Assembly: GCA_963708395.1 (NCBI GenBank)
Contig: CAVPSG010000002.1
Location: 901,100-965,099, forward strand
DNA: 64,000 bases
Origin: an uncultured Acidobacteriota bacterium
Lineage (GTDB): Bacteria > Acidobacteriota > Thermoanaerobaculia > UBA5066 > Gp7-AA6
Direction: 5' to 3'
Part shown: piece by piece, positions 10,094-15,436 of the stretch
How the letters are laid out: each line of letters begins with the position of its first letter
How positions within the stretch are numbered: position 1 is the stretch's first letter
Program-made: the position numbers and the translations under genes
Notes under the pieces: generated by a model
Seen by the model: the letters and a program-made list of their open reading frames with translations, nothing else
Told to the model about the DNA's origin: nothing
The model's database searches: none

Positions 10094-10707
10094 GCCGGCC
10101 TCCGATCGAGCGGCGCGGCCGCTTTTCTTTTCGCGAGCAGGTCCTTCGAGCCGACACCGAGGCGCATGATGACTTTGGTCGCATCGGCCACCGGCACGTC
10201 GAGGCGCGTGATCCGATCCTCCGGCAGGTAGAACACGGTTCCGACGGCCGGGGTCGGCGCGCTCGGGACGAAGACCGTGAGCGTGCCGTCCGCATTCTTT
10301 TCCATGACGTAGCCGAGCACGGTGTTGTCGTCGAACCGGGCAAGGGCGACCTCGACTTCGTCGGCGCCCTCGGCGGTGCCTTCGCCCGTCGCGCCCTTGA
10401 GGAGCGTGTAGCCCGGCATCTTCCGGAGGACGAGCTGCTCGAGCATGCTCTGAAGCCGCCGTCCGGGCCGCGTGCTCGCCACGAGCCCCGCGAAGAAGCC
10501 GACCAGAATCAGGAGAATGATGGCGATGAGGCTCGCGACCCTCATGCCGCCGACCGCTTCCACCGGAACCTGGGCCGCGATGGGACGCACGATCTTCGAG
10601 ACGAGCGCAACCGCTTGGCGCAGGAGCACGATCGTGAGGACGACCGGCAGAAGGAAGATCACGCCGCCGACGAGCGTCGTCTTGATGAATCGAACGATCC
10701 GCTTCAT
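10090..10707 (-). CDS. DUF502-like membrane protein
   Basis: MKRIVRFIKTTLVGGVIFLLPVVLTIVLL...MRVASLIAIILLILVGFFAGL. It has two TM segments and DUF502-like organisation. Its ATG (10707) overlaps the TGA of the upstream Fe-S subunit gene. Confidence 0.6.
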   Translation of the reverse strand: MKRIVRFIKTTLVGGVIFLLPVVLTIVLLRQAVALVSKIVRPIAAQVPVEAVGGMRVASLIAIILLILVGFFAGLVASTRPGRRLQSMLEQLVLRKMPGYTLLKGATGEGTAEGADEVEVALARFDDNTVLGYVMEKNADGTLTVFVPSAPTPAVGTVFYLPEDRITRLDVPVADATKVIMRLGVGSKDLLAKRKAAAPLDRRPA

Positions 10708-11658
10708 GGCTCCTCCTCCCGCTGCTGAACGAACTGCCATCCGAACCGGCCTTTGATGCAGAGATGTCCGCTCGCGACCTCGTTGTCGAGCGGCGAGGTC
10801 ACGCGCACGATCTCGTTGTCCTGGACGCGGAGAGCGAGGGTGCAGCCGACGCCGCAATATGGGCAGATCGTCTCCGTGACGGTCTGGCGGGACTCGTCCC
10901 AGCGGCCCGCCTGCCGCAGGTCGTGCTCGGTCTTGAACATCAGGGCGCCGGTCGGGCACACGCCGATGCAGTTGCCGCAATAGACGCAGGCCGATTCCGG
11001 CAGCGGGGTCGCGAGCTCCGTCGAGATCCGCGCATCGAAGCCGCGTCCGGCGACCGCGATCGCGAACGTGTTCTGGGCCTCGACGCCGCAGGCCTGGACG
11101 CACTTGTAGCAGAGGATGCAGCGCGCGTAGTCGCGCACGTAGAGATCGTTGTCCACCTTGACGGGCTGGGCGACGGTGGCCGTCGCGCCGGACGGCGGGC
11201 CGTGGTGGCCCGGGGTGGGTGCGGTCCCGCGCGTGGCCGTCCTCGCCGGCCAGCGGCGACGCCGGCGGCCCGTACCGCTCGGGCCGTGCGCCGTAGCGCT
11301 CCATCCAGCGGCGCACCTCGGGCGCCGCGCAGGAAAGATCGACGGAAGACGCCAGGAACTCCAGAACCATCTTGCGCGACAGGCGCACGCGCTCGCTGTC
11401 GGTGGAGACCTTCATCTTGGGCTCGACCGGGCGCGAGCAGGCGGGCACGAGGACCCGCGAGCCCTCGACCTCGACGACGCAGACGCGGCAGACGTTGACC
11501 GGCGTCAAATTCTCCAGGAAGCAGAGCGTCGGCGTGTCGAGGCCTTCCTGGCGGCACGCCTCGAGGATCGTCGAGCCCTCCGGCACCGTCACGGCGCGGC
11601 CGTCGATCGTCAGCTCGACCGGGCGCTCGGGATGGAGCCGGCGGTCGGCGGGGATCAT
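10704..11658 (-). CDS. NuoG/FdsA-N-terminal-like iron-sulfur subunit of formate dehydrogenase. It ends right after the molybdopterin-type 4Fe-4S (FS0) motif and has one frameshift near 11212.
   Basis: MIPADRRLHPERPVELTIDGRAVTVPEGSTILEAC...CRVCVVEVEG (2Fe-2S type), then after a frame switch DNDLYVRDYARCILCYKCVQACG and CVYCGNCIGVCPTGAL (4Fe-4S), then ICPYCGVGCTLALRV...GHLCIKGRFGWQFVQQREEEP and stop. ATG 11658 overlaps the stop of the flavoprotein gene. Confidence 0.8.
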
Positions 11659-13502: not shown

Positions 13503-13536
13503 GACGCGCTAACTGTAGCCGAAGGCGCGGCAGAGG

Positions 13537-15436
13537 TTAGGCGCTCTCTCCCAGCTTTTCGACCCGGATCGCCGCGGCCTTGAACTCCGCGGTTCCGGTC
13601 TTCGGGTCCGTGGCGTCGATCGTCAGGATGTTCGTCGGTGACGTCGTCCTGGAAGTGGAGCGTCAGAAACGCGAGCCCGGGCCGCAGCGTCTCGTCGTAT
13701 CGCGCCGGCACCGAGATCGCGCCGCGCCGCGAAACGGCGCGTACGACCTCGCCGTCGGCGACGGACCACCGCGCGCCGTCTTCCGGCGAGATGTCCAGAG
13801 TCTCCGGCCGGCGCAGCGGCGAGGTGTAGCCCGCGGTCTGGACGCCGGTGTTGAAAGAGTCCAGGCGCCGGCCCGTCGTGAGTCGCACGGGGAACTCGTC
13901 GGTCAGCCGGTCCACCGGCGGGTCGTGCTCGACGGCCACGAAAAGGGCGAGCGGCGGATCCGGCGGATCCTTCCAGAGGCGGCCGTGCAGGAACGGGCTC
14001 CCGGGATGCGACTCGTCCGGGCAGGGCCACTGGAGCCCGTGGAGCTCTTCGAGACGGCGATAGCTCATTCCGCTGTGCCAGGAAGAGAGTGACCGGAGCT
14101 CGTTCCAGACCCTCTCGGCCACGGGGGAGCCGAGCTCGACGTCGAGCCGCTTTCCGAGCTCATGCAGGATCTCCAGGTCCGGACGCGCCTGCCCCGGCGG
14201 CTCGAGCGCCTTGCGCACGCGCTGGACGCGACGCTCGCTCGAGGTGACGGTCCCCTCGTCCTCGCACCAGGACGCGGCGGCCGGCAGGACGACGTGCGCC
14301 ATCTCGCCGGTGCGCGTCAGGAAGATGTCCTGGACGACGAGATGGTCGAGGCCTTCGAGAAGATGCATGGCCCGCTTCTGGTCCGCCTCCGACTGCGCGG
14401 GGTTCTCCCCGATGACGTAGAGCGCGCGGAGCTTTCCGTGCTCCATCTCCTCGAACATCCGCGAGAGATGCCAGCCGCGACGATGCGGGATCGGCGACTT
14501 CCAGGCGCGCTCGAACTTCACGCGGGATTTCGGGTTCTCGACGTCCTGGCCGCCGGGGAGCTTGTTCGGCAGCGCGCCCATGTCGCCGCCGCCCTGCACG
14601 TTGTTCTGGCCGCGCAGAGGGCAGACGCCCGAGCCCCAGCGGCCGACGTGCCCCGTGAGCAGCGCGAGGTCGATCAGCGCGAAGACGTTGTCGAGTGCGT
14701 TGTGGTGCTCGGTGATGCCGAGCGTCCAGCAGAGCTGCGCCTTGCCGGCCTTCGCGTAGGCGTGCGCCGCGTCGCGGATCGCCGCCGCGGGGACTCCGGT
14801 CTCGCGCTCGGCGTACTCGAGCGTGTACTTCTCGACGCTCTCGCGGTAGTTCGGAAAGCTCGCCGTCGCCCGCGCGATGAACTCGCGATTCTCGAGCCCC
14901 GCGTGGAGGATCTCCCGCCCCATCGCGTTGGCGAGCGCGATGTCCGAGCCGACGTCGAGGCCGAGCCAGATGTCCGCCCATTGCGCCGACGCCGTGCGCC
15001 GCGGGTCCACGACGATGAGGCGCGCGCCGTTGCGGACGCCCTTCAGAACATGATGGAAGTAGATCGGGTGCGCTTCGCGCGCGTTGGAGCCCCAGAGGAG
15101 GATGACGTCCGCCTCCTCCGTCTCCCGATAAGAGCTCGTCCCGCCTCCCGCCCCGAACACCGTCGTCAGACCGACGACGCTGGGGGCGTGTCAGGTGCGG
15201 TTACAGCTGTCGATGTTGTTGCTGCCGACGGCGACGCGGGCGAACTTCTGCGCGTAGTAGTTCACCTCGTTGGTCGCCTTCGAGCAGGAGAAGAGGCCGA
15301 AGGCCTCTCCGCCCCGCTCGTCGCGGATGCGCCGAAACCCGTCGGCTGCCCGATCGAGCGCCTCTTCCCAGGACGCCTTTCGGAGCCTTCCGTTCTCGCG
15401 CACCAGCGGTTCGGTCAGCCGCATGTACGGCTTCAT
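13537..15436 (-). CDS. Formate dehydrogenase catalytic Mo/W-bis-PGD subunit, selenocysteine-containing (UGA at 15191-15193). It lacks its own FS0 cluster domain and has one frameshift near 13637.
   Basis: MKPYMRLTEPLVRENGRLRKASWEEALD...SNNIDSCNRT-[TGA]-HAPSVVGLTTVFGAGGGTSSY. The ORFs 15191..15436 and 13487..15160 are in the same frame. The natural C-terminus TNILTIDATDPKTGTAEFKAAAIRVEKLGESA-TAA (13537) is read in a shifted frame. SD AGGAGA lies 6 nt before the ATG, with an in-frame TAG 8 codons upstream. Confidence 0.85.
15161..15179 (-). promoter_or_regulatory. Bacterial SECIS-like hairpin directly downstream of the in-frame UGA
   Basis: The mRNA reads UGA CAC GCC CCC AG-CGUCGUC-GGUCU-GACGACG. 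This is a perfect 7-bp stem with a GGUCU loop starting 11 nt after the UGA. Confidence 0.75.

Follow-up and report, generated by a model that had tools for sequence, protein, structure and literature searches.

A predicted selenocysteine formate dehydrogenase with its alpha subunit divided between two genes in uncultured bacteria

We analysed a stretch of 64,000 nucleotides (hereafter the window; ~70% G+C) from the genome of an uncultured Acidobacteriota bacterium (contig CAVPSG010000002.1, positions 901,100 to 965,099). Translation of its minus strand from 15.7 to 10.0 kb gave three consecutive genes, encoding a catalytic subunit of the type with molybdenum or tungsten and bis(pyranopterin guanine dinucleotide) (Mo/W-bisPGD), a NuoE–NuoF fusion and a NuoG/HoxU-like iron–sulfur (Fe–S) subunit. 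With a probability of about 0.8, this operon encodes a cytoplasmic, selenocysteine (Sec)-dependent Mo/W formate dehydrogenase (FDH) that is built on a NuoEF-type NAD(H) diaphorase and receives its proximal [4Fe–4S] cluster (FS0) in trans. The enzyme kind is well known, but this way of building it from subunits would be a widespread one that has apparently not been described. An initial annotation of the window had proposed a Sec FDH whose alpha subunit is split at a domain boundary, with the pieces in permuted order and with a catalytic open reading frame (ORF) lacking a four-cysteine (Cys4) motif of its own; all of these proposals held up in the analysis described here.

Division of the alpha subunit at a domain boundary

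The catalytic and Fe–S proteins were searched against Pfam and TIGR01591 after frame correction (see below); profile searches of the corrected proteins had been suggested by the initial annotation. In the catalytic protein, Molybdopterin (PF00384) matched residues 6–430, starting from profile position 1 (E = 2.6e-65), and Molydop_binding (PF01568) matched residues 518–621 (E = 3.4e-20). The same search found no Molybdop_Fe4S4 domain (PF04879) in this protein, which also has no Cys4 motif of its own, and no cysteine motif is present in the in-frame sequence 5′ of the catalytic genes of 62 relatives. The Fe–S protein contains Fer2_4, two ferredoxin-type 4Fe–4S motifs and, at its very C-terminus (residues 259–311 of 317), Molybdop_Fe4S4. 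The NCBIfam equivalog Fdh-alpha (TIGR01591; 672 positions, curated cut-off 666.25 bits) is divided between the two proteins at positions 52/53: the Fe–S protein matches profile positions 1–52, and the catalytic protein matches positions 53–672 with 633.8 bits. When the two pieces were rejoined in silico (Fe–S residues 256–317 followed by the catalytic protein), positions 1–672 were covered in one match of 699.8 bits. On FdsA of Rhodobacter capsulatus (6tg9_A), the Fe–S protein covers residues 23–305, and the catalytic protein residues 308–932. Pfam, TIGR01591 and FdsA thus place the cut in the alpha subunit at one and the same point, precisely where the FS0 domain meets the Mo domain.

The first 476 residues of the rejoined construct align continuously to residues 5–471 of E. 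coli FDH-H, with only ~8 extra residues at the junction of the two pieces. As can be seen from this alignment, C265, C268, C272, C300 and K302 of the Fe–S protein correspond to C8, C11, C15, C42 and K44 of FDH-H, and U82-H83 and R275 of the catalytic protein to Sec140-His141 and Arg333. The four cysteines, which are the FS0 ligands, and the lysine that follows them are invariant in 20 aligned homologues of the Fe–S protein. We also considered protein splicing by a split intein; it is ruled out by the flush alignment to FDH-H, since the ~8 residues at the junction leave no room for intein halves.

Upstream of the FS0 domain, the Fe–S protein has the ligands of a [2Fe–2S] cluster (C46, C57, C60 and C74) and of two ferredoxin-type [4Fe–4S] clusters (C180–190 and C224–234). 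A His-ligated N5-type cluster is absent from it: PF10588 gave no hit, and SVDLSCAAPEV stands where the HPLDC...C-x2-C motif would be. The protein matched the HoxU model with 141 bits.

The catalytic gene reads MKPYMRLTEPLV...NIDSCNRT, then an in-frame TGA, then HAPSVVGL..., giving a Sec site motif of CNRT-U-HAPSV. In each of the 62 related loci whose sequence covers the active-site codon, that codon is TGA. Beginning 12 nt after the UGA there is a selenocysteine insertion sequence (SECIS) hairpin, with a stem of 7 bp and the loop GGUCU; a GGUC-type loop is also found in the SECIS of E. coli fdhF. Among 32 distinct sequences, 91.5% of stem cells were paired, as compared with 15% to 76% in a control where the 3′ partner was slid by 1–3 columns. 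Pair 18–30 shows a compensatory CG to GC change in three sequences, the covariation score was reached by none of 500 shuffles, and the loop is GGUCU in 31 of the 32 sequences. The gene, therefore, has two hallmarks of a bacterial selenoprotein gene, a catalytic in-frame UGA and a nearby hairpin with a GGUC-type loop. Gene callers split it at the Sec codon into an 81-amino acid (aa) product and a product of ~540–560 aa, which hides the N-terminus of the catalytic subunit from annotation.

The solved structures nearest to the catalytic protein are FdhF of the hydrogen-dependent CO2 reductase (HDCR; 7qv7_S) and E. coli FDH-H (1aa6), at 445–517 bits. It is highly improbable that the protein belongs to another Mo/W oxidoreductase, such as one resembling assimilatory nitrate reductase, even though, taken alone, it falls slightly under the TIGR01591 cut-off and matches the NasC and NasA models with 340–398 bits. 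The latter scores are far under the cut-offs of these models (1000–1100 bits), while the rejoined protein exceeds the Fdh-alpha equivalog cut-off. The Sec–His pair and the Arg of RGQNNVQG, in addition, agree with the active site of FDH-H, and genes for FdhD and formate–tetrahydrofolate (THF) ligase recur as neighbours of the operon in other genomes (see below). No twin-arginine translocation (Tat) signal was found in the catalytic protein, and the enzyme is, therefore, predicted to be cytoplasmic.

The NuoE–NuoF gene is an uninterrupted ORF of 615 codons. Its product comprises 2Fe-2S_thioredx (residues 52–161), Complex1_51K (251–420), SLBB and NADH_4Fe-4S (530–609), that is, a thioredoxin-like [2Fe–2S] domain, a site for flavin mononucleotide (FMN) and NAD(H), and an N3-type [4Fe–4S] cluster. 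It matched the NCBIfam models nuoF_fam and nuoE_fam, and chains of the NuoF, HoxF and FdsB types in the Protein Data Bank. Both the NuoE and the NuoF module of an FdsABG-type FDH are, hence, found here in one 615-aa protein. The protein ends at NADH_4Fe-4S (609 of 615), with no further Fer4 hits and no extra C-terminal ferredoxin domain. Since the NuoF part has no additional ferredoxin domain, the diaphorase is, as judged from its domains, of the non-bifurcating NuoEF, HoxEF or FdsGB type. We noted that two distant unsplit alpha subunits, P0234 (976 aa) and P0268 (961 aa), have an apparent C-terminal NuoE-like domain; the NuoE region of the window protein (residues 48–185) aligns to their residues ~821–974. 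This would be a further uncommon arrangement of domains within the enzyme family.

Conservation of the split and of the gene order

We searched a collection of 5.8 billion proteins with acidobacterial, actinomycete and planctomycete Fe–S proteins as queries, with 120 listed matches for each. All 360 listed matches are 286–392 aa long and have the same architecture, and none of them has a Molybdopterin domain. The best match to the corrected window protein, P0001, is an intact protein that is 99% identical to it over the full 317 residues. Among the matches listed, all family members come from metagenomes or metagenome-assembled genomes (MAGs), and their database names are generic ('2Fe-2S iron-sulfur cluster-binding protein', 'YjgC', 'HndD').

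When GTDB was scanned with each species represented by a single genome, more than 593 loci matched. The best 80 of these (L003–L082) were examined together with two further loci (L001 and L002), and the three window proteins were compared with all 82 by tblastn. By the titles of their records, the 80 scan loci are labelled Acidobacteriota (23), Chloroflexota (18), Actinomycetota (18), Gemmatimonadota (6), Planctomycetota (6), Verrucomicrobiia (1), Dormibacterota (1), Bacillota (1) and Dongiaceae (1), with 3 unclassified and 2 implausible; taxonomic assignments were verified for two loci. The loci L073 and L079 are labelled 'Micrarchaeaceae archaeon' and 'Saccharimonadales', respectively. These labels probably reflect binning contamination, because the loci are 70% identical to bacterial soil lineages.

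The catalytic gene is followed by the NuoE–NuoF gene, and that by the Fe–S gene, in all 67 loci that hold the three genes, across about eight bacterial phyla by label. The NuoE–NuoF gene lies directly upstream of the Fe–S gene in 79 of 79 loci with upstream sequence, and in 81 of the 82 loci the Fe–S ORF stops 0–53 aa past the query match, which reaches the end of the FS0 domain. The remaining observation on this point concerns L003, where the Fe–S frame (6001–8160) extends 404 residues beyond FS0 and the NuoE–NuoF gene is frame-shifted near its C-terminus; the extension probably results from indel errors in another long-read MAG and is not a real fusion. Twelve loci lack the catalytic gene, eight of them being too short and four having ~4 kb of upstream sequence. 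Identity to the window proteins across the loci is 50–97% (median 68%) for the catalytic subunit, 58–91% (median 63%) for the NuoE–NuoF fusion and 68–94% (median 72%) for the Fe–S subunit.

Either of the canonical orders (alpha–beta and beta–alpha) becomes the permuted gene order noted in the initial annotation by cyclic permutation. Misassembly is excluded as the source of this layout, which other, independent assemblies also show, among them contigs of 4.1, 4.3 and 7.1 Mb. The window does contain probable assembly errors, with single-base frameshifts in several genes, which would fit a split and an order that were an artefact of assembly or rearrangement, the true genome having a contiguous fdsA-type gene. 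Such an artefact is, nevertheless, extremely improbable: the 67 independent loci come from many assemblers and phyla, the catalytic and Fe–S genes are each equipped with a start, a ribosome-binding site and a stop, and a Molybdopterin domain is found in 0 of the 360 listed Fe–S homologues. The initial annotation had also allowed that the split might be already common and described in this enzyme family. Common it is, with its more than 593 loci, but a full-text search of the open-access literature found no description of an FDH alpha subunit split after FS0.

Of the 80 scan loci, 24 have an FdhD gene (PF02634) beside the operon, with its side and strand varying (for example, L058 7300–8226, minus), and a gene for formate–THF ligase (PF01268) adjoins the operon in 6, all of them actinomycete (for example, L046 2–1309, minus). 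These recurrent neighbours support the identity of the enzyme as an FDH. A search for a conserved fourth gene among the flanks of the related loci did not single out either neighbour of the operon in the window (see below).

The nearest unsplit cluster representatives are just 36–44% identical, suggesting that the split family is an old, distinct clade and not the product of recent fission. Two kinds of candidate for a closer unsplit relative were rejected: representatives of 360–440 aa turned out to be unsplit alpha subunits truncated at their own Sec codon, and P0256 to be a Moorella-type FdhA with a GltD-like partner.

Frameshifts and gene coordinates in the window

Neither the catalytic nor the Fe–S gene is one open frame in the window, each having one surplus base (near 13637 and near 11207, respectively). 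We compared the frames with those of the syntenic locus L001, whose three FDH proteins are 91–97% identical to those of the window (~92–94% at the DNA level). At the catalytic site, L001 has GACGTGGC-GACG and the window GACGTCACCGACG; the frame shifts 33 codons before the end of the gene, and the conserved C-terminal motif TNILTIDATDPKTGTAEFKAAAIRVEK lies in another frame from ~13637. At the Fe–S site, L001 has CGGGC-ACC and the window CGGGCCACC. The truncated Fe–S ORF of the window has an exact counterpart in the public gene call P0398 (150 aa), made on a contig of 3.38 Mb, indicating that the errors are present in the deposited assembly.

A plot of G+C by codon position over the whole window revealed several other frame changes within genes. 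The Pfam profile breaks at 166/168 in the Cys_Met_Meta_PP gene (~27870–29330, minus; near 28.5 kb) and at 105/108 in the FTCD_C cyclodeaminase gene (~46138–46762, minus; near 46.4 kb), and a BNR-like gene (~23633–25168, minus) has a similar frame break near 24.6 kb. The density of frameshifts in the window is, thus, roughly one per 10 kb, and the assembly is probably an indel-prone, long-read one. Since other genes of the window are broken in the same way, the two frameshifts of the operon are most likely assembly errors. It is also possible, though unlikely, that the operon is a decaying pseudogene cluster in this organism, with the family functional elsewhere. The insertions in the catalytic and Fe–S genes are the sole coding frameshifts in the 17 kb comparable with L001, and the public gene call on the source contig is similarly truncated. 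However, at least three unrelated genes of the window are frameshifted at a similar density, the operon genes otherwise show neither stops nor larger lesions and have 94–97% identity with their intact relatives, and one of the two insertions lies in a short G/C run, a typical long-read error.

The coordinates of the operon and of its elements are given in Table 1. Those of the initial annotation, together with the sequence details that it gave (the Shine–Dalgarno sequence, the in-frame TAG and the ATGA overlaps), were all correct on direct reading. The TAG sits 8 codons 5′ of the catalytic ATG, and the catalytic gene ends in TAA (13539..13537). The ATG of the Fe–S gene (11658) lies in an ATGA overlap with the NuoE–NuoF stop, and the TGA stop of the Fe–S gene (10706..10704) in another with the gene for a membrane protein downstream.

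Table 1. Features of the formate dehydrogenase operon (all positions are those of the window)
Feature	Position	Strand	Details and basis
Catalytic Mo/W-bisPGD subunit gene	13537..15436	minus	~632 aa after correction; translation, Pfam, TIGR01591
NuoE–NuoF fusion gene (diaphorase)	11655..13502	minus	615 aa; Pfam, NCBIfam, Protein Data Bank matches
NuoG/HoxU-like Fe–S subunit gene	10704..11658	minus	317 aa after correction; Pfam, FdsA alignment
Shine–Dalgarno sequence AGGAGA	15443..15448	minus	6 nt ahead of ATG 15436; direct sequence reading
Selenocysteine TGA in the catalytic gene	15191..15193	minus	residue 82, followed by His83; FDH-H alignment and relatives
SECIS hairpin	15161..15179	minus	CGUCGUC-GGUCU-GACGACG, begins 12 nt past UGA; fold
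Molybdop_Fe4S4 (FS0) domain, C-terminus of the Fe–S subunit	10725..10883	minus	PF04879 at residues 259–311; TIGR01591
One-base insertion, catalytic gene	13634..13640	minus	comparison with L001
Extra base within GGGCC run, Fe–S gene	11205..11210	minus	comparison with L001

The membrane protein encoded downstream (10090–10707, minus; 205 aa) has a weak match to DUF502 (E = 3e-4). The same neighbour is found in L001 and is absent from L002. Upstream of the operon there is a cupin gene (15630–16025) and, beyond it and ~0.8 kb from the operon, a gene for transfer-messenger RNA (tmRNA; 16232–16589, minus) with the tag peptide ANNSNLALAA. An Rfam scan of 10–17 kb at E ≤ 1 found the tmRNA alone, and no molybdenum cofactor (Moco) riboswitch or other leader element. 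The ten gene families that recur most often in the flanks of the related loci include neither the DUF502-like nor the cupin gene, and the DUF502-like membrane protein is probably outside the FDH system. There are no fdsC and fdsD genes in the window.

Proposed mechanism and relation to known systems

In the enzyme that we propose, a long alpha subunit of the FdsA type would be present as two polypeptides. The catalytic one would hold the bis-PGD cofactor with Sec82, His83 and Arg275 and have no Fe–S cluster of its own, and the last 60 residues of the Fe–S subunit would hold FS0 and the relay lysine K302. The FS0 domain may dock non-covalently on the catalytic subunit and so supply it with the cluster in trans. 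Electrons would pass from formate to Mo/W, to FS0 in trans, through the two [4Fe–4S] clusters and the [2Fe–2S] cluster to N3 and FMN, and then to NAD+. Such a path would in principle be reversible, the reverse direction being CO2 reduction; the physiological direction of the predicted enzyme is a matter of inference.

Several observations weigh against this proposal or parts of it. The coupling to NAD(H) is predicted from homology only. A structure prediction for the Fe–S subunit by itself, made from a 20-sequence alignment, was unusable, with a mean predicted local distance difference test (pLDDT) score of 41 and a predicted template modelling (pTM) score of 0.32. Comparison with L001 over 17 kb showed coding frameshifts at two sites only, and both sites are inside the operon. 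No genes for FdhD, tRNA-Sec or Sel proteins were found within the 64-kb window. Four loci (L034, L055, L066 and L081) have no catalytic gene within 4 kb upstream. Finally, in several Chloroflexota loci, 0.7–3.6 kb of unrelated genes separate the catalytic from the NuoE–NuoF gene, which means that co-transcription of all three genes is not obligatory. Insertions at this place were seen in L010, L011, L022, L025, L032, L039, L041, L044 and L058 (Chloroflexota), and also in L003, L007 and L008 (Acidobacteriota). The inserted genes are unrelated to each other; examples are a methyltransferase gene on the opposite strand and a gene for a solute-binding/transglycosylase protein.

The catalytic gene being set apart in some Chloroflexota, and missing from the vicinity in four loci, would also fit a catalytic subunit that works without a proximal cluster, in the manner of dimethyl sulfoxide and trimethylamine N-oxide reductases. 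The NuoE–NuoF fusion and the Fe–S subunit would then be an independent diaphorase, whose terminal Fe4S4 domain is vestigial like N7 of NuoG. Members of the Mo-bisPGD superfamily that lack FS0 do exist. We consider this arrangement very unlikely, however: the four FS0 cysteines and the relay lysine are invariant across the alignment of 20 homologues, the two proteins fit together exactly on TIGR01591 and on FDH-H, neither overlapping nor leaving a gap, and the three genes are linked in every one of the 67 loci that hold them all. Supply of FS0 in trans thus stands as our preferred explanation.

How the gene order arose is a matter of speculation: it may have come about when a tandem duplication lost its ends, or when the 5′ part of the alpha gene moved to a place behind the diaphorase gene. 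A broader proposal is offered tentatively, at somewhat less than even odds. According to it, the family is the first recognised class of Mo/W-bisPGD enzymes with FS0 and the relay lysine in trans; it is always Sec-dependent, extends over at least 8 phyla with at least 68% identity of the Fe–S protein and is seen only in uncultured organisms, and the split was perhaps selected to separate slow decoding of UGA from synthesis of the Fe–S module. The suggested role of Sec decoding comes from the use of Sec by every member seen. On this hypothesis, failed read-through in a split gene would yield an 81-residue peptide, and not a 380-residue Fe–S fragment competing for the diaphorase.

The FDH superfamily is closely studied for CO2 reduction, and in every case seen, to our knowledge, electrons pass between the metal centre and FS0 inside one polypeptide. 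A family with FS0 in trans would, therefore, be a natural test of the extent to which cofactor insertion, assembly and electron transfer depend on the covalent link. The split also suggests that a catalytic Mo/W subunit can be attached in a modular way to other electron-transfer modules. In soil, many uncultured members of the Acidobacteriota, Chloroflexota, Actinomycetota, Gemmatimonadota and Planctomycetota appear to have a mis-annotated FDH. Given the cut at the Sec codon and the generic names of the Fe–S genes, surveys that trace formate metabolism through marker genes could overlook the enzyme or assign it wrongly. For a specialist, the architecture is moderately surprising.

Parts of the predicted enzyme resemble several known systems. 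The match to the HoxU model recalls HoxEFU of the bidirectional [NiFe] hydrogenases, and the NuoE/NuoF-like part is in the role of HoxE/HoxF; HoxU, however, has no Molybdop_Fe4S4 domain, and its partner is a hydrogenase and not a molybdoenzyme. The electron-bifurcating HylABC–FdhF2/HydABC (Bfu) enzymes differ in having C-terminal 2x[4Fe–4S] ferredoxin domains, which the NuoF part in the window lacks. With the short alpha subunits of the FdhF type (FDH-H, 1aa6; HDCR of T. kivui, 7qv7) the catalytic subunit shares the Sec–His–Arg active site and a SECIS with a GGUC loop. FdhF, however, has its N-terminal FS0 in cis, whereas in the window the corresponding 52 profile positions are on another protein.

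An FDH-like Mo/W unit divided at a domain boundary is reportedly present in formylmethanofuran dehydrogenase, as FwdB and FwdD, and we know of no other such division of an FDH-like unit. The cut is, however, at a different place: in FwdB/FwdD it lies before the C-terminal Molydop_binding domain (which is FwdD) and FS0 is in cis, whereas in the window it lies after the N-terminal FS0.

The tungsten enzyme FoDH1/MeFDH1 of Methylorubrum extorquens (Fdh1AB; 7vw6, 7e5z) is, like the predicted enzyme, NAD-linked and made of two modules. Its beta subunit, which we take to be a NuoE–NuoF fusion, was matched by the window fusion over the NuoF part (7e5z_B, 337 bits). In contrast to the split, Sec-containing alpha subunit of the window, Fdh1A is a contiguous protein of ~990 aa that has a Cys ligand and contains FS0 itself.

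The FdsABG(D) enzymes of Rhodobacter capsulatus and Cupriavidus necator (6tg9, 6vw7) are likewise cytoplasmic Mo enzymes with a NuoE/NuoF-type diaphorase, and have a NuoG-like chain of [2Fe–2S] and ferredoxin-type [4Fe–4S] clusters leading toward FS0 and the bis-molybdopterin guanine dinucleotide cofactor. In an FdsA-type enzyme, a NuoG-like region that includes the His-ligated [4Fe–4S] cluster is joined to the Mo domain in a single alpha subunit, and FS0 and the relay lysine are in the Mo-domain polypeptide. In the window, by contrast, the alpha subunit consists of two polypeptides, with the division after FS0, the catalytic protein has neither FS0 nor the relay lysine, and the His-ligated cluster is missing; the operon opens with the catalytic gene, NuoE is fused to NuoF, and Sec takes the place of Cys.

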